Origin: an uncultured Dehalococcoidia bacterium
GTDB lineage: Bacteria > Chloroflexota > Dehalococcoidia > Lucifugimonadales > UBA826
DNA length: 64,000 nt
Direction: 5' to 3'
Assembly (NCBI GenBank): GCA_964343265.1
Contig: CAYFIW010000001.1
Span: 6,709-70,708, forward strand
Positions 33,654-51,898 of this stretch are shown piece after piece. Within the stretch, counting starts at the first letter, position 1. Each line of letters starts with the position of its first letter. Below the pieces are notes generated by a model. The model did not search any database, was not told the DNA's origin, and worked only from the letters and a program-made list of their open reading frames with translations. Made by a program: the position numbers and the translations under genes.

Positions 33654-36176
33654 TTGGAACAAGTTCTCAGCGGTTTGAGAATAGTTGAATTTGGAAATGA
33701 CGTAGCTGCCGCTAACGTTGGAAGGTTACTGTCGGCCTATGGTGCAGAAGTTATACTCGTTGAACCACCGGAAGGAAATATCCTCCGACATCTTCCTCCC
33801 TATGCAACCAAAACCTCAACCTCAGAACCTGACCTTGAGAAAAGCATCCTTTTTGCATACATGAGTACAGGGAAAAAATCCGTTCTCCTAGATTTAAATC
33901 AACCTCAGAACATACAAATATTAAGAGACCTTGTTCTCAGCTCAGACGGCGTAGTTGATAGTTACCAACCAGGATATCTGACCAAATTAGGCATTGATCT
34001 AGAAGAACTTTCGAACATAAAACCATCACTATGCGTCACAAGGATATCTCCTTACGGACAGACTGGGCCTAAATCCTCATGGAAAACCAGCGCACTGACA
34101 AGTTTTGCATCTGGTGGACAGATGTACTTAACAGGTGACCCAGACCGAGAACCACTCATGACGGCAGGACATCAGGCACACATACAAGGAAGTCTTCATG
34201 CACTCGGTGGTACATTAACCGCTTTATTTGCAGCAGAAAAAACCGGTAAAGGAGATGTTCTTGACATCTCTCTACAAGAAGTTCAGCTTGCTACCCTTGA
34301 GGGAGCAGGACCAGCCGCCCTTTGGTATGGATCTGAACAACCGAGGGGAGGCAACAATCCAAGGGCTTTATGGGGCGTCCATCCTTGCAAAGACGGATGG
34401 ATTGGCGTTGCATCCATGCCTCGCCAAACCCACTCTGTTTTGGACACCATAAACGCCTCAGCATTAAAAGATGACCCTCTTTTCAAAGACAATGCCTGGA
34501 GCCAAGAAGCTGACGATTTATTAAGACATTTAGTGCCGTTGTTTACTTTAGAGCATGACGCTGAGGAGATTTTTAAAGTCGCAAATTCTTACCGAGCCCC
34601 GTTTGCCATGATTCCTGAACCTAGTGACCTTTTGAAATGGCGCCACTATCAAGAAATAGATTTCTGGCAGAAAGTTACTCATCCAGTACTGGGTGAGCAT
34701 CCCGTTCCATCCGGACCAATATGGTTTAGCCCTGATGAAGGAGGGGAAAAACCACTTCCAGATAAAGGAATGTTTAGACCCGCTCCGACCCTAGGACAAC
34801 ACACAAAGGAAGTACTTGAAGCTTTAAATAGCCGATCTAAAACCTCTAAAACTATCAATAACACCACAGAATCAACAAAATGCGAAGACCCATATGGTCC
34901 TCCTTTAAAGGGCCTTCGTGTTATTGATATGACTCAAGTTTGGTCAGGCCCCTACGCCGCCCGCTTCCTGGCAGATATGGGCGCGGATGTTATAAAAGTA
35001 GAAGGACCTACTTTTCCGGACCCAATCAGAACCGCCACAAGACAACATCGCGCCGGGGAACCAGACATAAATGTATCCGCATACTTTAGTGAATATAACC
35101 GGGGTAAGAGAGGATTTGCTGTCGACATAAAACAAAAAAGTGGTCTAGAAGCGCTAAGAAAGCTAATCGCAACCGCAGATGTGTTCCTTGAAAATTGGTC
35201 TTCCGGTGTAGCTGATCGAAACTCTTTAGGTTATGAAGACATAAGATCAATCAATCCCAAAATCATATATGTCACTATGCCAGGTTTCGGTCACCAGGGT
35301 TCAGATTCATCCATGGTAGGATTTGGGCCGACTATAGAGCAAATGGGAGGGCTTGTCGCACTTCAAGGATATAAGGGAGGAGAGCCACACAAAACAGGGA
35401 TCTCTTATGGCGATCCAATCGCAGGGGCCACCTGTGCTGCTGCTATCGCCGCCGCCCTGTTAAGAAGAGAGAAAACAGGCTACGGGTGTTATTGTGTCTT
35501 GCCTCAAAGGGATGGAGTCACTGGTCTTGTTGGGGAATTCTTTATAGCAGAATCATTGGGCTTTCCGATGGAATTAAGGCTAGGCAACAGTTCCAATTTT
35601 TCTACTCCTCATAATATATACCCATGCAAGCCAGATGATAAACCGAGAATAGTTCTTGGACCTGACGGAAATCCTGTAGGCGAATTGTTTGATAGATGGA
35701 TCGCTATTGATTGTCAAAGTGACAAAGAGTGGGATGCACTAAAGAAAACCATAAATGATCCCAGACTCAATAACCAAGAATATTCGACTCTGCAGGGCAG
35801 ACTCAAATATACGGAACAGATAGATAAAGTAATATCAGAATGGACCTGCGAGAAAGATCCTCACGAATTGGAGAACTTACTTCAGTCAAAACAAATCACA
35901 GCGTCATCAGTGGCGACAGCTGCTTCACTTCTAAATGATAATCATATCAAGGAAAGAAACGTTTTTATCTCTGTGATTCACTCTATTGTAGGTACTCACA
36001 GTACAGCTAGGCCGACCTGGAGATTCTCTAAGCGTACTAGTCTTCCATCTAAATCTAGCCCATTGTTTGGGGAACATAATGAAGAAATACTAAAAGACCT
36101 AGGATACGACGAGGAGATTATATCTTCTATGAAACAAAGTGGCGCGATATCTAAAACACTCCTAGGAAACAGGTAG
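33654..36176 (+). CDS. Tandem (duplicated) family III CoA-transferase (CaiB/BaiF) fusion protein
   Basis: Two complete modules in one 840-aa ORF. Module 1 starts LSGLRIVEFGNDVAAANVGRLLSAYGAEVILVEPP. Module 2 starts near residue 420 with LKGLRVIDMTQVWSGPYAARFLADMGADVIKVEGP. TTG start with GGGAGA upstream. Confidence 0.8.
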   Translation: MEQVLSGLRIVEFGNDVAAANVGRLLSAYGAEVILVEPPEGNILRHLPPYATKTSTSEPDLEKSILFAYMSTGKKSVLLDLNQPQNIQILRDLVLSSDGVVDSYQPGYLTKLGIDLEELSNIKPSLCVTRISPYGQTGPKSSWKTSALTSFASGGQMYLTGDPDREPLMTAGHQAHIQGSLHALGGTLTALFAAEKTGKGDVLDISLQEVQLATLEGAGPAALWYGSEQPRGGNNPRALWGVHPCKDGWIGVASMPRQTHSVLDTINASALKDDPLFKDNAWSQEADDLLRHLVPLFTLEHDAEEIFKVANSYRAPFAMIPEPSDLLKWRHYQEIDFWQKVTHPVLGEHPVPSGPIWFSPDEGGEKPLPDKGMFRPAPTLGQHTKEVLEALNSRSKTSKTINNTTESTKCEDPYGPPLKGLRVIDMTQVWSGPYAARFLADMGADVIKVEGPTFPDPIRTATRQHRAGEPDINVSAYFSEYNRGKRGFAVDIKQKSGLEALRKLIATADVFLENWSSGVADRNSLGYEDIRSINPKIIYVTMPGFGHQGSDSSMVGFGPTIEQMGGLVALQGYKGGEPHKTGISYGDPIAGATCAAAIAAALLRREKTGYGCYCVLPQRDGVTGLVGEFFIAESLGFPMELRLGNSSNFSTPHNIYPCKPDDKPRIVLGPDGNPVGELFDRWIAIDCQSDKEWDALKKTINDPRLNNQEYSTLQGRLKYTEQIDKVISEWTCEKDPHELENLLQSKQITASSVATAASLLNDNHIKERNVFISVIHSIVGTHSTARPTWRFSKRTSLPSKSSPLFGEHNEEILKDLGYDEEIISSMKQSGAISKTLLGNR

Positions 36177-38425: not shown

Positions 38426-39442
38426 TTGACATGTTCTGACGAAAGTCATATCTACGAAGCAACAGATGATGACACTCCAGCTTTTGTTGGAATTGATACT
38501 TTTTTGCAAGGTCCATTTGTTAAAACGCCAAGCCAACTACGTGAATATAAAGCCGACGTTGCTATAATTGGCGCGCCATTTGACCTAGGTGTCGTACACA
38601 AACCAGGCGCGAGATTTGGCCCTCGTGCCATCAGACAGGCAGGATATTTTGGGGCTCCAAATGATGATATATATCATATAGGCTTAGGTATATACCCAAC
38701 GGACGAACTGAAAGTCGTTGATTATGGCGACGCCAATTGTCCTCCCAATTCTATTGAATTGAGCCACCGAGCCATAGAAGAGAAGGTTCGACAAATTCTC
38801 GATACAGATACAATTCCCGTAGTTATCGGGGGCGATCACTCCATCACCTTGCCTTCAGCGACAGCCGTTGCGAATCATTTTGGATTTGGAAATGTTGGCA
38901 TGGTTCACTTTGATGCTCATGCTGATACAGCCCCTTCATCTTACGGAGGTGTGCTAGAGTCACATAGCACTCCGATGCGTAGGTTGATTGAATCCGGAGC
39001 AATACCAGGCAAAAATTTTATCCAAGTCGGTCTTAGAGGATATTGGCCACCCCACACTTTATTTGATTGGATGAGAGAGCAAAAAATGAGATGGCATCCA
39101 ATGTCTGAAATCGAGACAGATGGATTTGACTCTGTGATAGATAAAGCAATAAATGAAGCACTTGATGGACCGGACAAAATATATTTATCGGTGGACATTG
39201 ACGTACTAGATCCCGCATTCGCTCCCGGTACTGGAACCCCGGAGCCAGGCGGGTTAAGTTCATCACAATTATTACGTGCTATAAGAACGATATCCAAATC
39301 GGTTGAAATCGTTGCAGTAGATATTGTTGAAGTTGCACCACATTATGAAGGACCCGCGAGTATCACAGCAGAGGCAGCACACCGTATGATGCTGGAAGCA
39401 ATTAGTGGTATTGCAGTTTATAGGAAGAATAATCGTACCTAG
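38426..39442 (+). CDS. Ureohydrolase-family enzyme (agmatinase / guanidino-acid hydrolase-like)
   Basis: Mn-binding motifs GGDHSIT, HFDAHADT and SVDIDVLDP. TTG start with AAGGGAG 7 nt upstream. Confidence 0.85.
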   Translation: MTCSDESHIYEATDDDTPAFVGIDTFLQGPFVKTPSQLREYKADVAIIGAPFDLGVVHKPGARFGPRAIRQAGYFGAPNDDIYHIGLGIYPTDELKVVDYGDANCPPNSIELSHRAIEEKVRQILDTDTIPVVIGGDHSITLPSATAVANHFGFGNVGMVHFDAHADTAPSSYGGVLESHSTPMRRLIESGAIPGKNFIQVGLRGYWPPHTLFDWMREQKMRWHPMSEIETDGFDSVIDKAINEALDGPDKIYLSVDIDVLDPAFAPGTGTPEPGGLSSSQLLRAIRTISKSVEIVAVDIVEVAPHYEGPASITAEAAHRMMLEAISGIAVYRKNNRT

Positions 39443-40353
39443 CCAAGATAGATATCCCCCGATCTGCCTCCCTTCTTACTAAGAAGTTTCGTACTCATCT
39501 CCATACCCTTGTCAACAGCCTTACACATATCGTAGATGGTTAAAGCGGCTATAGAAACCGCAGCTAATGCCTCCATTTCCACTCCAGTTTTACTCTGGGT
39601 TCTAGCCACGCTTTTAATTTCTATGGCCGAATCATTTTCATTTATTTCAAAACTTATATCTACGTGTGTTAGAGGTAATGGATGACAAAGAGGTATGAGG
39701 TTGGATGTTTGCTTTGCGCCCATAATGCCTGCGATTTTGGCAATCGCCAGCACATCACCTTTCTCAAAAGAATTCTCTTGAACTAATTGTAAAGTGCTTG
39801 GTAGCATTTTGACCGTGCCAACCGCCTCCGCAACCCTCTCCGTATCCGGTTTTGCTCCCACATTTACCATACTTACTTTGCCGGCAGCATCAACGTGAGT
39901 AAGCTTTTCTTGGAGGTCTACCTTTAAACCACTCATTCTTCCCTCATCTCTATTTTTTTTTGAATCTATGTTTCCCGTCGCCTCTCCATGAGCCAACCTA
40001 TCCGCCTCCTCATTCAATGGATCTCCAGCATGACCCTTAACCCATTCCCAATTTACTTTTCTTATCTGAACTTCTTTATCTAAAAGGTCCCACAAATCAT
40101 TATTTTTTTTTCGCTTCCAGTTTTTTGTCATCGTATTAATTACATAGGAAGAATCGGAAAAAACCGTTACTTGTGACTTCGATGGAATACTCTGTAGAGC
40201 CTCTACTACTGCCTTTATTTCCATTCTATTGTTTGTCGTATCAGGATCGTTACCATGAATAACTCGACGAGGTCCATCACCTATAATCACGGCTCCCCAA
40301 CCACCTGGACCAGGATTACCTAGACAGGCTCCATCTGTGTATATAGTGATCAC
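39439..40353 (-). CDS. rnhA-moaC: RNase HI fused in one ORF to cyclic pyranopterin monophosphate synthase MoaC
   Basis: Residues 1-~130 are RNase HI: IYTDGACLGNPGPGGWG, NNRMEI, SDSSYV, WEWVKGHAG and EEADRLA. Residues 140-304 are MoaC: LTHVDAAGKVSMVNVGAK, LIPLCHPLPL and GVEMEAL. An internal ATG at 39936 is preceded by GAGGGA. Confidence 0.8.
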   Translation of the reverse strand: MITIYTDGACLGNPGPGGWGAVIIGDGPRRVIHGNDPDTTNNRMEIKAVVEALQSIPSKSQVTVFSDSSYVINTMTKNWKRKKNNDLWDLLDKEVQIRKVNWEWVKGHAGDPLNEEADRLAHGEATGNIDSKKNRDEGRMSGLKVDLQEKLTHVDAAGKVSMVNVGAKPDTERVAEAVGTVKMLPSTLQLVQENSFEKGDVLAIAKIAGIMGAKQTSNLIPLCHPLPLTHVDISFEINENDSAIEIKSVARTQSKTGVEMEALAAVSIAALTIYDMCKAVDKGMEMSTKLLSKKGGRSGDIYLG

Positions 40354-41988: not shown

Positions 41989-42178
41989 TACGTCAGCCTT
42001 TATTGTGAAGTCATCACCATTACCCAGAATTATACCGTTACAACTCTCCCTGATTTTAAGGTTTGATACTGTAAACATAGACAAAACCTTAAATTTATGA
42101 CCTCTTGTATAATCACGATGAATTAATGAAATATATGAGCGGTCTATAAATAATTAGATATATATGCGGAGGATCAAT

Positions 42179-43822
42179 ATGCACCTTCTTGAAGTTTCAA
42201 ACCCAGTTGCTCAGCAACGAGGCATGATGAATGTACTAAAAACTAATCCTCGTCCAAGTACCTTGAATGACTTAACAATAGGCTTAGTATGGAGTGGAAC
42301 CCATGGTGGGGACTTAGCTCTCAATAGGGCGGGAGAGATAATTCAGGAAAGATTTTCTAACGTTAAAATCAATTTTTATACTGGGGGTAATTATCCTACT
42401 CCTCCAGCCATAGTGAAACAGGCTGGAGAGGAATGCGACGTTGTAATCGGAGCTACAGCGGATTGAGGGACCTGCGCGTCGTGGATGTGCCACGACATGA
42501 TAGAAATTGAGAAAATGGGAAAACCTGCGGTTCCAATTGTATCTGGGCGTTTTAAAGACGATGCAATTGCAAGTAGCAAAACCTTCGGGATGCCAGATCT
42601 TCAATTTGTTATTGTTCCTCGTATTTATCGCAATCTAGCGGATGACCTGTGTGTCGCCCAAACTGAAGAAGCCATAGACGATCTTATAGATTGCCTGACA
42701 TCGGAGGGAGCCTCATCGGCAACAGAGAAAGAAGAAGAATCCAAAATACGATTTGAAGGAGAGGATAGATACGACGCTGTTTTGAAGATGAACGCGGAGT
42801 TCAATAGAAGAGAGTGGTCGGATGCCCTTCCTTTATATCCCGCAACAGATGAAGCAGTGGCTGACTTAATTTCTGGAACAGGTTTAAAATCGGACGATGT
42901 TGTTTGTGATATGCCTCCAGGTTTTGGTGTCGCAACCGTTGAAAAAATAGCCATAAACTCCGCTCTCGCCGGGGCGAAGCCCGAACACATGCCAATTATA
43001 ATCGCAGGCGTGAAATGCTTATCAGAAATGGGCTCCCACGGGGGCAAATCTTTACTTATGTCTACTAGCCCGCACGCCCCTATTCTCGTTGTTAACGGCC
43101 CAATCGCCAAAGAGGTTGGCTTGAACCCACGGTCAGCTCTTGGACCAGGAAAAGAAAACGAGATAAACATAACCATAGGTAGAGCCTTTTATTTATGTCT
43201 CAGGAATATAGGCATGTGGTATCCGAACAAAATGGATATGGACACCATAGGAACAACAAGAAAATTTATTCAATGCGTGGCTGAAAATGAAGATATGAGC
43301 CCCTGGCCGAGCTATTCTCAGGATCGTGGTTTTGACGAAAAAGAGAGTGCTATTTCTATTTTTGTTACGGATGGAGAACTTGATGTTCAAGACCAAGGTA
43401 ATACATCAGCAGAAGGATTGCTAAAGACGCTGGCATACGGCATAACCTTTGGAAATACTACCTTGGGCGGTAGTCACGCACAGGGTCATGAGAGACTTAT
43501 ATTCATGCCCCCGGACGTAGCAGGACCGGTAGGCAAGGAGGGCTTCACAAAGCAAGATGCCAAAGAGTTTATACACAAGCATGCCAACCACAGTCTCGGA
43601 AAGATGATTCAGTATATGCCGCTTAATGATGCGAGAGTTGATGAACAATGGCACTATCTCAAAGACAAGACGGAAAAGGAAAGGTTGGCAATTGAAGTAC
43701 CCTTGCTTCATAGTGCAGACAATATCGATCTAGTAGTAGTCGGAGCAGATAGAGCCAAAACACTGGTATTTCCATCTGGTCCCACAGCTGCTACCGTCGG
43801 AATAGACCAATATCGCAAATAA
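42179..43822 (+). CDS. Putative selenoprotein. An N-terminal UxxC (UGSC-family-like) redox domain is fused to a ~400-aa domain of unknown function, with in-frame UGA at 42464-42466
   Basis: ORFs 42164-42466 and 42485-43822 share one frame, and TGA is the only interruption. Read-through gives ...VVIGATAD-U-GTCASWMCHDMIEIEKMGKPAVPIV. GGAGGA lies 5 nt upstream of the ATG at 42179. A hairpin follows the TGA. Confidence 0.7.
42478..42496 (+). promoter_or_regulatory. Candidate bacterial SECIS element (recoding hairpin)
   Basis: GTCGTGG-AUGUG-CCACGAC forms a perfect 7-bp stem with a 5-nt G/U-containing loop. The stem begins 11 nt after the in-frame UGA. Confidence 0.55.
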
Positions 43823-43917
43823 TTGATCAGTTACAGATGGGTCCATCATGGAGCAGAAAAATGGGACCCATCTATAACTCGGCAAGATTTACTGATTACT
43901 AGAAAGGCATATTTACA

Positions 43918-45000
43918 TTGGGTGTCCTAGATCAATTTAAGGTAGTCGAACTTAGTAACTATCCTGCGGGTAATATTTTGGGCATGCTGTTGGCAGACCA
44001 AGGTGCCGACGTGTTAAAAATTTTCCCTGAAGAGGGAAACCCCCTAGAAGGCACTGCTGAACATGCTGTTTGGAACAGGGGTAAAACTCAAATTAGGACT
44101 TCATTTTCCTTAGAAACTATTCTTGAATTTCTTAGTGCCGCTGACGTTTTAATCGAGTGTCTAAACCCACATCAGGCAGATAATATAGGCCTGACATCAG
44201 ATATCCTGTCTAAAACAAATGCAGGCCTGATTACTGCCTCGTTACCTGCATTCCGAGAAGGCCATAAGTACGAAAATATACCCGCCAGAGAAGAATTAGT
44301 AGCCGCATCTTCAGCTATCTATGCTCTCAATCCTTCAGGTGAACTTCCCGTTGAAGGAGAGGGACCCTCTTTTCATAGTCTTTACTACGCCAGTACCTTT
44401 GCCGCCATGACTGCTGCTCCCGCAGTCGTAGCAGCTCTTATTCAAAGAGATCTCACAAAAAAAGGTCAAAAAATCACAGTACCAATACATGATGCTATGT
44501 TCCAAGGTATGGGAACCGCTCTAGTCCGCCATGCAAAGAGGAAACATGGAAGACAAGAAGGCCATCCAATCATCGAGAGGTTCTATGAATGCTCAGACAA
44601 TAGATGGGTAAATGTAAATCTATCGATCCCTAGATTTTTGGAGATATTTCTTGATGTTATAGAGCATCCTGAATGGATGAAAGATATTTCTAGCATCGGG
44701 CTCTCAAATCCTGACTCTTCGTTAATAGATTCTTGGAAATACAAAATTAATGCAGTTTGGAAACAACGGACAGCTCTGGAGTGGGAATCTTTAATGTCAG
44801 ATGTGGGCCTACCGGTTACTATGTGTCGAAGTATCGACGAATGGGTTAATGAAGAGCACGCTTTGCAATCTGGTGCGATTATAGAAATCAATGACCCTCA
44901 TTTTGGGAAAATGAAACAACCCGGGATTTTAGTTAGGACCCTGTCTAATCCAGGCATAGTTTCTGGCTCTGCACCTTACATTGGAAATATCCATGAATAA
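43918..45000 (+). CDS. Family III CoA-transferase (CaiB/BaiF) protein
   Basis: N-terminus LDQFKVVELSNYPAGNILGMLLADQGADVLKI. TTG start. Confidence 0.75.
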   Translation: MGVLDQFKVVELSNYPAGNILGMLLADQGADVLKIFPEEGNPLEGTAEHAVWNRGKTQIRTSFSLETILEFLSAADVLIECLNPHQADNIGLTSDILSKTNAGLITASLPAFREGHKYENIPAREELVAASSAIYALNPSGELPVEGEGPSFHSLYYASTFAAMTAAPAVVAALIQRDLTKKGQKITVPIHDAMFQGMGTALVRHAKRKHGRQEGHPIIERFYECSDNRWVNVNLSIPRFLEIFLDVIEHPEWMKDISSIGLSNPDSSLIDSWKYKINAVWKQRTALEWESLMSDVGLPVTMCRSIDEWVNEEHALQSGAIIEINDPHFGKMKQPGILVRTLSNPGIVSGSAPYIGNIHE

Positions 45001-46210
45001 CAGAGATCAGGTTCCAATGACTGAACCACCTCCTTTGAAAGGAATACGAGTTCTAGATCTCTGTATTGTCCTTGCAGGTCCTACTTGTGGAAGAACTTTG
45101 GCACAGTATGGCGCAGAAGTTATAAAAATAGACCCAGATCATCGTCTTCCGCAACTTACACCATGGCTTGACGTTGGGCGTGGAAAGAGAAGTATTTCAC
45201 TTAATTTGAATAAACCAGGTGGTATTGAAGCGTTCCTAAAATTGACAGATTCTGCTGATGTAATCATAGAGGGATTCAGAAAAGGAGTTACAGAACGACT
45301 TGGAATCGGATACGAAAGGCTCTCCGAGAGAAATCCATCTCTTATTTACGGCTCAATCAATTGCTTTGGACATGAAGGACCGTGGCAACTGCGACCAGGG
45401 TTTGAACAAAATGCTCAGGCCGCCACAGGAGTACAACTGCGAAATTCTGGGATCCCACTCGATCTCAATAGTGAAAATGTTAAACCCCGTCCAGCTACAT
45501 TTACTTTAAATGATTACGGAACAGGAATATCAGCAGCATTCGCTATTATGTTAGCTATATTAGAACGCAACAAAACAGGTATAGGACAAAAAGTCGAAGC
45601 CGCCCTTTCGTATACCTCATCAACAATTACCGGTTCTAGTAACATTGACTACGATGGGTTCAATAGGGAAGAGATAGGTGGACCCGGGGCTAGAGGTAAA
45701 GACTATTTCAACAGGCTTTACGAATGTAGTGACGGATGGATCTTTATTTCTGCTTCTACTGAATTAGAACGTGATAATCTGAAGGCCATTCCTTATTTTT
45801 GTCAGGCAATACAATTAGGTGAAGTTCATTCAATAGAGAAAATCTTTAAAACAAAGTCTGTTTCAGATTGGCAAATTATTTTGAATAACTCAGGAATTCC
45901 TGCTGTTCGTAATAACACAGCTCTAGACCTTCATGCAGATCCTTACAACCAAGAGAATGAACTAGTTATAAAAACAGATTATGAATATTCCTCTTCTGAT
46001 ATTCCAAAAGATCAAACAAATTGGGGAAATACTACCTGGCCTGGCAACCCTGTATCTATGTCAGGAACTAACCTAATCGACGTTGTTGCCCCTTCATTTG
46101 GAGCAGACACTCATCAAGTTCTTAAGGAGATAGGCATTTCTGACATAGATATCTCACGTATGGTACAAAATGGAACTATTCCTGCTGACCTACCTATTCC
46201 TCTAATCTGA
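44993..46210 (+). CDS. Family III CoA-transferase (CaiB/BaiF) protein
   Basis: Segment LKGIRVLDLCIVLAGPTCGRTLAQYGAEVIKIDP. The ATG at 44993 overlaps the upstream stop (ATGAATAA), and the track TTG at 44981 is in the same frame. Confidence 0.8.
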   Translation: MNNRDQVPMTEPPPLKGIRVLDLCIVLAGPTCGRTLAQYGAEVIKIDPDHRLPQLTPWLDVGRGKRSISLNLNKPGGIEAFLKLTDSADVIIEGFRKGVTERLGIGYERLSERNPSLIYGSINCFGHEGPWQLRPGFEQNAQAATGVQLRNSGIPLDLNSENVKPRPATFTLNDYGTGISAAFAIMLAILERNKTGIGQKVEAALSYTSSTITGSSNIDYDGFNREEIGGPGARGKDYFNRLYECSDGWIFISASTELERDNLKAIPYFCQAIQLGEVHSIEKIFKTKSVSDWQIILNNSGIPAVRNNTALDLHADPYNQENELVIKTDYEYSSSDIPKDQTNWGNTTWPGNPVSMSGTNLIDVVAPSFGADTHQVLKEIGISDIDISRMVQNGTIPADLPIPLI

Positions 46211-46223
46211 ACAAAAAGAGACT

Positions 46224-47552
46224 TCACAACTTTGAAGCAATTTTCCTGCCTTTTTTTGCATAAATCTCTGCAAAATATGTCGATAAGCCAATATAGTGCT
46301 CGGGATTAAGAAGATCTGTGATCTGCTCTAGGGTTAGTCTGCTTGACACCTCGCTTTCCTCCGACAGTGTTTCCCTAAAAGGTCGTCCTTCATTAACAGA
46401 TTTTTGGGCTGCATCATAAACAACATCATGAGCTTTTTGTCTTCCCATTTCCTTCCCTAGCTCTAACATTATTTTCTCGGACATTATCAATCCCCCCGAT
46501 AAATCTAGATTGATTCTCATCCTGTCCGGAAACAACGTGAGGCCTGAAAATATCTCATTAAGATTATCTAAAATCTCAGCGGTTAAAAAACACACCCTGT
46601 CAATTGCTGAATTTATCATCATACTTGTAGTTTTATCAGCCTCATGTTCAGTTTGCATAGCCTCCAACGCCATAGGCACAAATGTCCTAACTTCTGACGC
46701 CCAAGCCACCACATCTTGGCTCAATCGTGGGTTCCGCTTCTGAGGCATCGTAGAAGATCCAACAGCTCCCAGAGGAACCGGCTCCTCAACTTCGCCAAAT
46801 TCCTGCTTCATCATTGTGTATACCTCACGAGCCATCTTGCTCGAGGTAGCCGCCAGCATTGCTAAAAGAGTGATATATTCTGTGAGATGATCACCAATTG
46901 TCCGAGAAGGCATAGGCATTGACGCTAATCCCAATTCTTTTGCCATGAGATTTTGAGTTTCTATTCCCTCTAATCCTACAGATGCCATAGTCCCGGCACC
47001 TCCTCCTAGCATTGCTACAAATACACGACCTTCACATTCTTTTAATCGTGATACATGCCTAATTAATTCATCAATCCAAACAGCAACCTTGTATCCAAAC
47101 GTTGCGGGAACAGCATGTTGCCCGTGTGTCCTTCCTGGCATTGGATAGCTCTTAGATTTTTCCGCCAAGTCACTCAAGGTAAAAAGCAATTCACCTAAAC
47201 CCTTTAAATAAAAATCATGGCATTTCTTAACTACTAAAAGTTTTCCAGTTTGCGTTATGTTCTGAGTCGTCGCTCCCCAGTGTATGTAGCCACCTGCATC
47301 ATCTCCGCACACCCTATCTAATTCCCAAATTAAAGGAACAAGCGGATGCCCAGTCTTTTTTAATCCAGCATCAACATTCTCTATGTCTAATAATTCTAAT
47401 TTCCCTTTTTCTTGAATTTTTTTTGCTGCCCACAAAGGTATTATTTCTTGTTTTGCTTGTGCTTTGGCAAGCGCCACTTCCACATCGAGATAAGCTTGGT
47501 AAATCGATTCCCTGGTAAGAAGATTTTTGATTGATTTATTTATTGATGACAT
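46224..47552 (-). CDS. Fumarate-lyase superfamily enzyme (adenylosuccinate lyase / 3-carboxymuconate cycloisomerase-like)
   Basis: Superfamily signature GSSTMPQKRNP, plus a TQNIT motif and a HGQHA region. Confidence 0.8.
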   Translation of the reverse strand: MSSINKSIKNLLTRESIYQAYLDVEVALAKAQAKQEIIPLWAAKKIQEKGKLELLDIENVDAGLKKTGHPLVPLIWELDRVCGDDAGGYIHWGATTQNITQTGKLLVVKKCHDFYLKGLGELLFTLSDLAEKSKSYPMPGRTHGQHAVPATFGYKVAVWIDELIRHVSRLKECEGRVFVAMLGGGAGTMASVGLEGIETQNLMAKELGLASMPMPSRTIGDHLTEYITLLAMLAATSSKMAREVYTMMKQEFGEVEEPVPLGAVGSSTMPQKRNPRLSQDVVAWASEVRTFVPMALEAMQTEHEADKTTSMMINSAIDRVCFLTAEILDNLNEIFSGLTLFPDRMRINLDLSGGLIMSEKIMLELGKEMGRQKAHDVVYDAAQKSVNEGRPFRETLSEESEVSSRLTLEQITDLLNPEHYIGLSTYFAEIYAKKGRKIASKL

Positions 47553-51091: not shown

Positions 51092-51898
51092 ATGAGTATT
51101 GGACGAAAATTTACAATCGCCCTGCTTGCTTTGTTTTCGATCTTGGGAGTGGCATGCGGATCTTCGGGCTCTAGTGAATCAGAATCAGACCTCGGTTCTG
51201 GTACATCTAATAGGGTCTCCACAACAGCTTCGTCGCTTTTCCCAGACGGGACTCTTGCAAAAAACATCAGGCTGAAATTGAATTTACCTGAAGGGGCGGA
51301 CATTCCTGCAGATACGGACTTCACGCAATTTACAGTTTTCAATGCGGCGCTTGAGTTGTATATTGAAGATCTGACCGGTTTAGAGAGATTGTCCAATCTT
51401 GAAGATTTGGATCTTGCTCAAAATAAACTTGTTGATATTACTCAGGTTGGCCAGCTGACTAAAATGAAACGACTTAACCTCAGCCAGAATGCTATTGTCG
51501 ATATCTCGGCCTTGGCACCGTTGACAGATGTGTATTATCTTCATCTTATGCAGAATCAAATAGCTGATATCTCTGCTTTGGCTGGTATGACAGAGATAAC
51601 AGAGATAAACATACAAGATAACTTGATTAGTGATATTTCACCTCTAGCCAACATGAAAGGTTTAGAGGTAATCAGATTGAATACAAACCAAATAACTGAT
51701 TTGTCACCTCTGGCGGGTCTTCCAAATGTTAAGGCGTTGGAATTTTCAAAGAATAATGTGACTGACTTGTCTCCCCTTCTAGAGGCGGGATGGGGCGAAG
51801 GGACTGAGATTAGGTGTTGGGGAGTTCCATTAGACGATAATTCAATCAATAACGTTATCCCTGCGCTTGAAGCAGCAGGCGTCGATGTTAAATTTTAG
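51092..51898 (+). CDS. Leucine-rich-repeat (internalin-like 22-residue LRR) lipoprotein
   Basis: Lipobox LGVAC-GSS. There are about 7 tandem repeats of L..L..L.L..N.I.DIS.L (nt ~51374-51797). Confidence 0.8.
   Translation: MSIGRKFTIALLALFSILGVACGSSGSSESESDLGSGTSNRVSTTASSLFPDGTLAKNIRLKLNLPEGADIPADTDFTQFTVFNAALELYIEDLTGLERLSNLEDLDLAQNKLVDITQVGQLTKMKRLNLSQNAIVDISALAPLTDVYYLHLMQNQIADISALAGMTEITEINIQDNLISDISPLANMKGLEVIRLNTNQITDLSPLAGLPNVKALEFSKNNVTDLSPLLEAGWGEGTEIRCWGVPLDDNSINNVIPALEAAGVDVKF

Follow-up and report, generated by a model that had tools for sequence, protein, structure and literature searches.

What does a selenoprotein do when two-thirds of it belongs to no named family, and do the genes beside it help to explain it? 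The question is raised by a locus on contig CAYFIW010000001.1 of an uncultured Dehalococcoidia bacterium (Chloroflexota), of which we analysed a stretch of 64,000 nucleotides (nt), called the window below; positions count from its first letter. The gene at 42179-43822 (plus strand; 547 codons plus stop) is a single frame whose sole interruption is a TGA, and it fuses a UGSC redox domain to a domain that we call Unk1. Two genes for family III coenzyme A (CoA) transferase homologues lie downstream on the same strand, and a lyase gene converges on them; the initial annotation had suggested that all of these belong to one organic-acid catabolic module. Our analysis leads us to conclude that the gene encodes a genuine selenoprotein; that UGSC and Unk1 are obligate partners across bacteria; and that the adjacency to the CoA-transferases is likely due to chance. 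We propose that the two domains may form a self-contained reductase.

The in-frame TGA codon

The frame-1 open reading frame (ORF) spans 42164-43822, and the only stop codon inside it is TGA 42464-42466. Its context is GATAD-TGA-GGG-ACC-TGC, read U-G-T-C, which places selenocysteine (Sec, U) at residue 96 of 547 amino acids (aa). The four peptides quoted in the initial annotation all occur in the translation of this ORF. The start is probably ATG 42179, with GGAGG 7 nt 5' of it; the gene caller used on the source scaffold, 196 kb of marine sequence from TARA Oceans, chose the same codon, and the N-termini of homologues read MHLLEV or MYTLEV.

We compared the gene with 80 related genome loci and with 83 more (80 on metagenome contigs, three from contig look-ups); counts out of 162 refer to the loci outside the window's clade. 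The aligned codon was TGA in 75 of the 80 genome loci and a Cys codon (TGC or TGT) in the other five, which come from Georgenia daeguensis, Intrasporangium, a Mycobacteriaceae metagenome-assembled genome (MAG), Geminicoccus and Actinophytocola. Outside the clade, TGA occupied the Sec site in 141 of 162 loci, and in seven more the frame ran on with no stop there; a Cys codon was seen in five of these seven. This alternation of TGA and Cys at one aligned site indicates that the codon is decoded as Sec. The motif itself, Sec96-Gly-Thr-Cys99 in the window, was U/C-G-[STG]-C in every locus with a readable site. In a count based on hidden Markov models, one genome locus among L004-L086 had TGG at the Sec position, which may reflect replacement by Trp, an error in sequencing or a faulty alignment.

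Folding prediction placed a hairpin of the selenocysteine insertion sequence (SECIS) type, GUCGUGG-AUGUG-CCACGAC, at 42478-42496 on the plus strand, with a 7-base-pair helix beginning 11 nt past the UGA. Across 130 distinct sequences, 97% of cells were paired, and five of the seven pairs showed compensatory changes (22 cells). No shuffle of 500 attained the observed values, and controls slid along the sequence were only 18-51% paired. The helix overlaps conserved codons (Ser-Trp ... His-Asp), and the compensatory changes are synonymous, for example UCG/CAC to UCA/CAU. The only tRNA found in the 64-kb window was tRNA-Thr. Because the TGA is conserved, Cys orthologues exist and the SECIS helix covaries, two separate genes or a pseudogene are ruled out. 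The gene encodes a genuine selenoprotein, and we regard this call as strong.

A UGSC domain joined to a domain of no named family

The UGSC domain forms the N-terminal ~175 aa. Pfam PF24696 gives it 98-102 bits against a cut-off of 25 (98 bits for 42197-42700, plus strand), and the surrounding motif is AD-U-G-T-C-A-S-W-x-x-H-D. The NCBIfam model NF041046, whose 147 positions are the size of the UGSC domain alone, gives 88 bits, under its cut-off of 125. The protein is thus a further member of a described family without known function.

For the full-length structure we modelled a natural Cys homologue, P0126 (39% identical), with AlphaFold in place of the window protein. The model had a mean predicted local distance difference test (pLDDT) score of 91.5 and a predicted TM score (pTM) of 0.92, and this pTM suggests that the UGSC and Unk1 domains would pack against each other in a fixed arrangement. 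Its UGSC part matched flavorubredoxin, WrbA and flavodoxin (E about 1e-3, probability about 1.0), and none of the top 50 matches was to a thioredoxin fold. A thioredoxin-like fold was suggested for UGSC in the passages on the family in PMC2398784; the flavodoxin-like matches of the P0126 model do not bear that suggestion out.

Unk1 (42746-43819, plus strand) is an alpha/beta domain of ~350 aa. We found no match to it in Pfam (E<=10), NCBIfam or the PDB sequences, nor did a profile of 54 Unk1 sequences find any in the PDB. The initial annotation was therefore right that the C-terminal domain maps to no named family, and somewhat overstated its size at ~400 aa. The domain is well folded in its AlphaFold2 model (pLDDT 92.8, pTM 0.92), and it has no solved relative: a Foldseek search of the PDB returned weak matches only, at a TM of about 0.2, among them class I fumarate hydratase (E 4e-4), cyanuric acid hydrolase and RidA. 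D, T, N, R and two E are among its invariant residues.

The family is large. A word-indexed search with the selenoprotein found homologues in 925 clusters at 90% identity, and an exhaustive search found 3579 clusters at 50% identity (E<=1e-3), 2094 of them at E<=1e-10. The closest genomes are SAR202 MAGs (Chloroflexota, Dehalococcoidia). In their sources, the Unk1-family homologues are all named 'hypothetical protein'.

UGSC and Unk1 as partners

If the two domains work together, they should be found together. Indeed, 152 of 162 loci have the two side by side on one strand, with UGSC upstream in 145 and downstream in seven. UGSC-Unk1 fusions make up 71 of the 150 best cluster representatives: gene callers cut 51 of these at the Sec codon, 18 are full length and two are reversed (Unk1-UGSC). 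About 58 further representatives were apparently stand-alone forms or fragments, and five were tandem Unk1-Unk1 proteins. The 80 metagenome loci were fetched with a profile of the 'stand-alone' forms; in these and the three contig look-ups, a UGSC element, usually split by TGA, lay directly beside Unk1 in 73 of 83. Even where the two are separate genes, in L087 and L089, they remain adjacent. UGSC and Unk1 are thus obligate partners across bacteria.

Occasionally another thiol-redox domain takes the place of UGSC. An AhpC/Redoxin domain stands N-terminal to Unk1 in P0213, where its motif is CATC, and in P0218, where it is CPTT; a domain like the beta subunit of ferredoxin-thioredoxin reductase (FTR) stands C-terminal to Unk1 in P0251. 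The redox module of Unk1 therefore appears to be interchangeable, being UGSC or, occasionally, Redoxin or FTR-beta-like. It is chiefly this pattern of partners and fusions that makes us see in Unk1 a client, catalytic or substrate-binding, of a dithiol or selenothiol donor.

Several of these loci have features of their own. The linkers between the redoxin domain and Unk1 in P0213 and P0218 share a 'PGCGS' sequence, which resembles the C-G-S of the UGSC motif. At the P0251 locus (L088, 6452-10619), genes for UGSC, the Unk1-FTR-beta-like protein, a fumarate-reductase-like flavoprotein and a 2Fe-2S protein follow one another in that order in what is apparently an electron-supply operon, flanked by solute-binding proteins, UbiD, an enzyme of the old yellow enzyme (OYE) family and two CoA-transferases. 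More than one Unk1 or whole module occurs in L070-L073 (one groundwater Chloroflexi MAG), L089, L096, L105, L144, L148, L151 and L160, and proteins of ~715 aa with two tandem Unk1 domains are represented by P0172, P0178, P0194 and P0196. Such clustered and tandem copies point to paralogue expansion or to hetero-oligomers.

Genes that recur near the module

We assessed neighbouring genes by assuming uniform placement within the available flanks and comparing the count within 3 kb with that expected. Of 18 loci with a solute-binding protein of the Dpp/Opp type, 15 had it within 3 kb, where 9.1 were expected (P = 0.003); no other neighbour was significantly concentrated near the gene. In Intrasporangium and Mycobacteriaceae, the gene apparently comes first in an operon whose other genes encode the binding protein, a pair of permeases and one or two ATPases. 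In the actinobacterial loci L065 and L066, UGSC-Unk1 is followed on a single strand by the binding protein, the two permeases and the ATPase(s), and a gene of the thioredoxin-reductase type lies just upstream (divergent in L065). Thioredoxin-reductase-like genes occur in 14 loci, as do TctC binding proteins.

A candidate Sec-dependent reductase

We propose that the two-domain UGSC/Unk1 selenoenzyme is a self-contained thiol/selenol-dependent reductase in which Unk1 binds an imported small substrate, and we put the probability of this reading at about one half. Unk1 would bind a small organic molecule taken up by the cell. Sec96, placed where a helix of the flavodoxin-like UGSC domain begins, would attack the substrate or an oxidized intermediate; Cys99 would resolve the adduct to give a selenenyl-sulfide; and a system of the thioredoxin/glutaredoxin type would re-reduce this. 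That the substrate is imported we infer from the concentration of Dpp/Opp-type binding proteins and from the operons, and the thioredoxin-type reductant is suggested by the thioredoxin-reductase-like genes in 14 loci.

Several observations weigh against this proposal. No substrate, cofactor or reaction is, to our knowledge, known for the family. Unk1 has no universally conserved Cys, and the Pfam, NCBIfam and PDB searches revealed no homology between it and any reductase. The full-length model is of the 39%-identical Cys homologue rather than of the window protein. By the uniform-placement test, the associations with thioredoxin reductase and TctC are not significant. Finally, the neighbouring transporters represent several families (Dpp-type, TctC, SBP_bac_1), which may mean that the module does not serve one substrate throughout.

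More tentatively, and with a good deal less confidence than in the proposal itself, UGSC-Unk1 could represent a new class of Sec-dependent substrate reductase, in which a flavodoxin-like Sec domain is combined with a catalytic domain of unsolved fold to act on imported small organic molecules. If so, abundant lineages generally described as aerobic, SAR202, actinobacteria and betaproteobacteria among them, would have a counterpart of the Stickland-type reductases of anaerobes, and an orphan selenoprotein family that ranks with the most abundant in metagenomes from oceans and fresh waters would be explained.

Alternative readings

Might the chemistry of Unk1 not be redox chemistry at all? Unk1 could be a hydrolase, isomerase or lyase that UGSC regulates or protects by thiol switching, or the pair could be an antioxidant or peroxidase-type system. 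The AhpC/TSA-like fusions of Unk1 in two clusters would fit such a role, as would two Cys positions that are kept in most, but not all, Unk1 sequences, and the weak fold matches are indeed to hydro-lyases and hydrolases. However, those matches are at a TM of only about 0.2, and the window protein itself lacks the first of the common Cys residues, having AGAKPEH in place of AGC. The Sec residue is also nearly universal (141 of 148 readable sites) and the pairing constantly 1:1, which suggests a role in catalysis rather than in occasional regulation. We therefore consider a non-redox Unk1 unlikely. A function in trafficking or detoxifying an inorganic species (a metal, a metalloid, sulfur or selenium), with Unk1 as the carrier, is the least probable of the readings that we weighed. 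A flavodoxin-like fold, such as UGSC appears to have, is also found in some arsenate reductases. Reviews, moreover, tie many UxxC selenoproteins to metals or metalloids. Yet Unk1 has no invariant Cys or His cluster, and ars, mer and cop genes did not recur near the module in the loci surveyed; the recurrent neighbours are binding proteins for organic solutes.

There remains the reading of the initial annotation, in which a single organic-acid catabolic module unites the selenoprotein with the CoA-transferase pair and the lyase, and the selenoenzyme would reduce a CoA thioester or the precursor of one. The arrangement is retained in L007, L008 and L010, and the spacer between the selenoprotein gene and the first CoA-transferase gene is about 15-25 nt in L007, L009 and L010. 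These four loci, L007-L010, are the nearest relatives of the window (76-85% identity) and the only ones with an orthologous CoA-transferase pair. What they share is a whole block, Ham1-MoaA-RNaseH/MoaC, selenoprotein, CoA-transferases 1 and 2, lyase and Obg, which is common to L007, L008 and L010 as far as their contigs extend, and present in L009 without the lyase. Since the block runs from Ham1 to Obg and includes unrelated housekeeping genes, this is ordinary clade synteny. Beyond the nearest relatives the neighbourhood is not kept: the neighbours are wholly different in three relatives with complete genomes, at about 70% identity, and in another 60 or so SAR202 loci (60-75% identity), which have no CoA-transferase. 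Outside the clade, 13 of 162 loci had a CoA_transf_3 gene somewhere in their flanks; six had it within 3 kb, where 6.9 were expected (P = 0.8). At <=30% identity, none of these genes is an orthologue of the pair in the window. CaiB/BaiF paralogues are greatly expanded in SAR202 genomes, which have dozens of them (PMC5395668), and the window alone holds four family III CoA-transferase domains; the adjacency is therefore likely to have arisen by chance. In favor of a link, a different CoA-transferase directly adjoins the module in L011, L061, L087 and L148; L087 and L089 also have acyl-CoA synthetase, MaoC-like, enoyl-CoA hydratase and thioesterase genes; and CoA-transferase pairs recur 2-5 kb away in L023, L088, L105 and L117. 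Because such pairs recur in these four unrelated loci, we do not dismiss a CoA module altogether, but consider it improbable, less so than an inorganic role and more so than a non-redox Unk1. A link between selenium redox chemistry, CoA-thioester chemistry and the lyase thus finds no support other than lineage-specific synteny: we read the CoA-transferase pair and the lyase as a separate unit, found beside the gene only in this sub-lineage of SAR202, and we have removed the tempting link to CoA-ester metabolism as unsupported.

Relation to known systems

A UGSC protein fused to a domain named Unknown_1 was described by Zhang & Gladyshev in 2008, in passages that assign it no function (PMC2398784). 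It has the U-G-x-C motif, an N-terminal domain followed by a conserved unknown domain, and mostly Sec. It is very probably the architecture seen here, which corrects an earlier statement that no such protein had been described, and Unknown_1 is probably our Unk1. The same passages report that Unknown_1 also stands alone in a few aquatic organisms, and that UGSC is abundant in aquatic metagenomes, with 255 Sec forms and 21 Cys forms in the Global Ocean Sampling (GOS) data. Reviews of 2022 and 2026 still list the family as uncharacterized, and a literature search on SAR202 together with selenoprotein or selenocysteine returned nothing relevant.

Two groups of known enzymes invite comparison with the proposed reductase. 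MsrA/B-Trx and Prx-Grx fusions join a catalytic domain to its thiol reductant; in the proteins described here Unk1, as the catalytic partner, would likewise be joined to a thiol-redox module, which is exchangeable and stands in either order. Unk1 shows no relation to Msr or Prx, however, and none of its Cys residues is an invariant catalytic one. Glycine/sarcosine/betaine reductase (Grd) and D-proline reductase (Prd) combine a UxxC Sec component with a separate substrate-binding component, and their electrons come from a thioredoxin system whose genes often lie close by. The logic of GrdB/GrdE (protein B) and PrdB/PrdA, that of a UxxC Sec component working with a substrate-binding one, is similar; the UxxC motif of PrdB is among those listed in PMC2398784. 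UGSC-Unk1 differs from them in being a single polypeptide with no sign of a pyruvoyl group, and in occurring mostly in lineages described as aerobic heterotrophs. Neither domain matched GRDB or Gly_reductase in Pfam (E<=10) or any Grd or Prd model in NCBIfam (E<=0.1).

UGSC proteins have thus ranked among the most abundant selenoproteins of aquatic metagenomes since 2008 while their function stayed unknown. What is new here is that UGSC has the unassigned domain as its constant partner, that this domain defines a large family (the 3579 clusters at 50% identity) with neither a Pfam model nor a solved relative, and that other thiol-redox modules can stand in for UGSC. In addition, Cys forms exist in organisms that may be tractable, such as Georgenia daeguensis JCM 17459, where the gene lies beside a Dpp-type transporter. 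Together, the constant partner, the size of the family, the module swaps and the Cys forms make the function open to experiment.

The CoA-transferase pair and the lyase

The two CoA-transferase homologues are encoded on the plus strand at 43918-45000 (360 aa; PF02515, 174 bits) and 44993-46210 (405 aa; PF02515, 241 bits), and they cover profile positions 1-364 and 1-366, respectively, of 366. The second gene starts before the first one ends, and the overlap of 8 nt (ATGAATAA) makes translational coupling plausible. The family assignment and the coupling agree with the initial annotation; that the pair follows the selenoprotein gene immediately does not hold, given a spacer of 95 nt with a stable hairpin at 43835-43873 (plus strand; dG -23.9 kcal/mol, z -2.67). 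No T-run follows this hairpin, and the short spacers of L007, L009 and L010 lack it. Within the clade, the selenoprotein gene and the pair may be co-transcribed.

CoA-transferase 2 has the catalytic Asp (LNDYGTG), which is conserved in its orthologues save for an ambiguous base (X) in L009. Aligned with solved transferases and with its orthologues, CoA-transferase 1 shows Ser (YYAS) where active enzymes have xxxD, and the four orthologues from L007-L010 also show Ser there. The pairs in L023, L088, L105 and L117 likewise consist of one member with the Asp and one without. This pairing suggests that the two coupled genes encode a heteromeric transferase with a single catalytic subunit. Benzylsuccinate CoA-transferase (PDB 9fn0) is similar in that two coupled paralogous family III genes encode it, and one window subunit retains the catalytic Asp; chains A and B both match CoA-transferase 2, and chain A also matches CoA-transferase 1. 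At only about 25-30% identity, however, the comparison is one of analogy.

The convergent gene at 46224-47552 on the minus strand ends 13 nt from the stop of CoA-transferase 2. As the initial annotation had it, this is a fumarate-lyase-superfamily gene: its product has the Lyase_1 and ADSL_C domains and carries GSSTMPQKRNP, an instance of the superfamily signature GSSxMPxKxN. Its NCBIfam scores are all below cut-off (PRK08937, 392 against 626 bits; XcbD, 352 against 600; PcaB, 332 against 595; purB, TIGR00928, 294 against 326). Judged by these profiles, it appears to fall in the adenylosuccinate lyase/PcaB/XcbD branch. We rejected a confident assignment as PurB, the score of 294 bits being under the equivalog cut-off of 326.

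Other genes in the window

Three further genes deserve mention. The plus-strand gene at 33654-36176 encodes a protein of 840 aa with two complete CoA_transf_3 domains (545 bits, in three stretches), a double-CaiB architecture that we take to be that of DddD-type enzymes. Directly downstream of MoaA, one minus-strand ORF at 39439-40353 fuses RNase H (residues 2-122) to MoaC (residues 161-295); the fusion is retained in L008, and L009 has two separate matching pieces. Finally, the gene at 51092-51898 (plus strand) encodes a bacterial protein of 268 aa that consists almost entirely of leucine-rich repeats (LRR_4, LRR_8).

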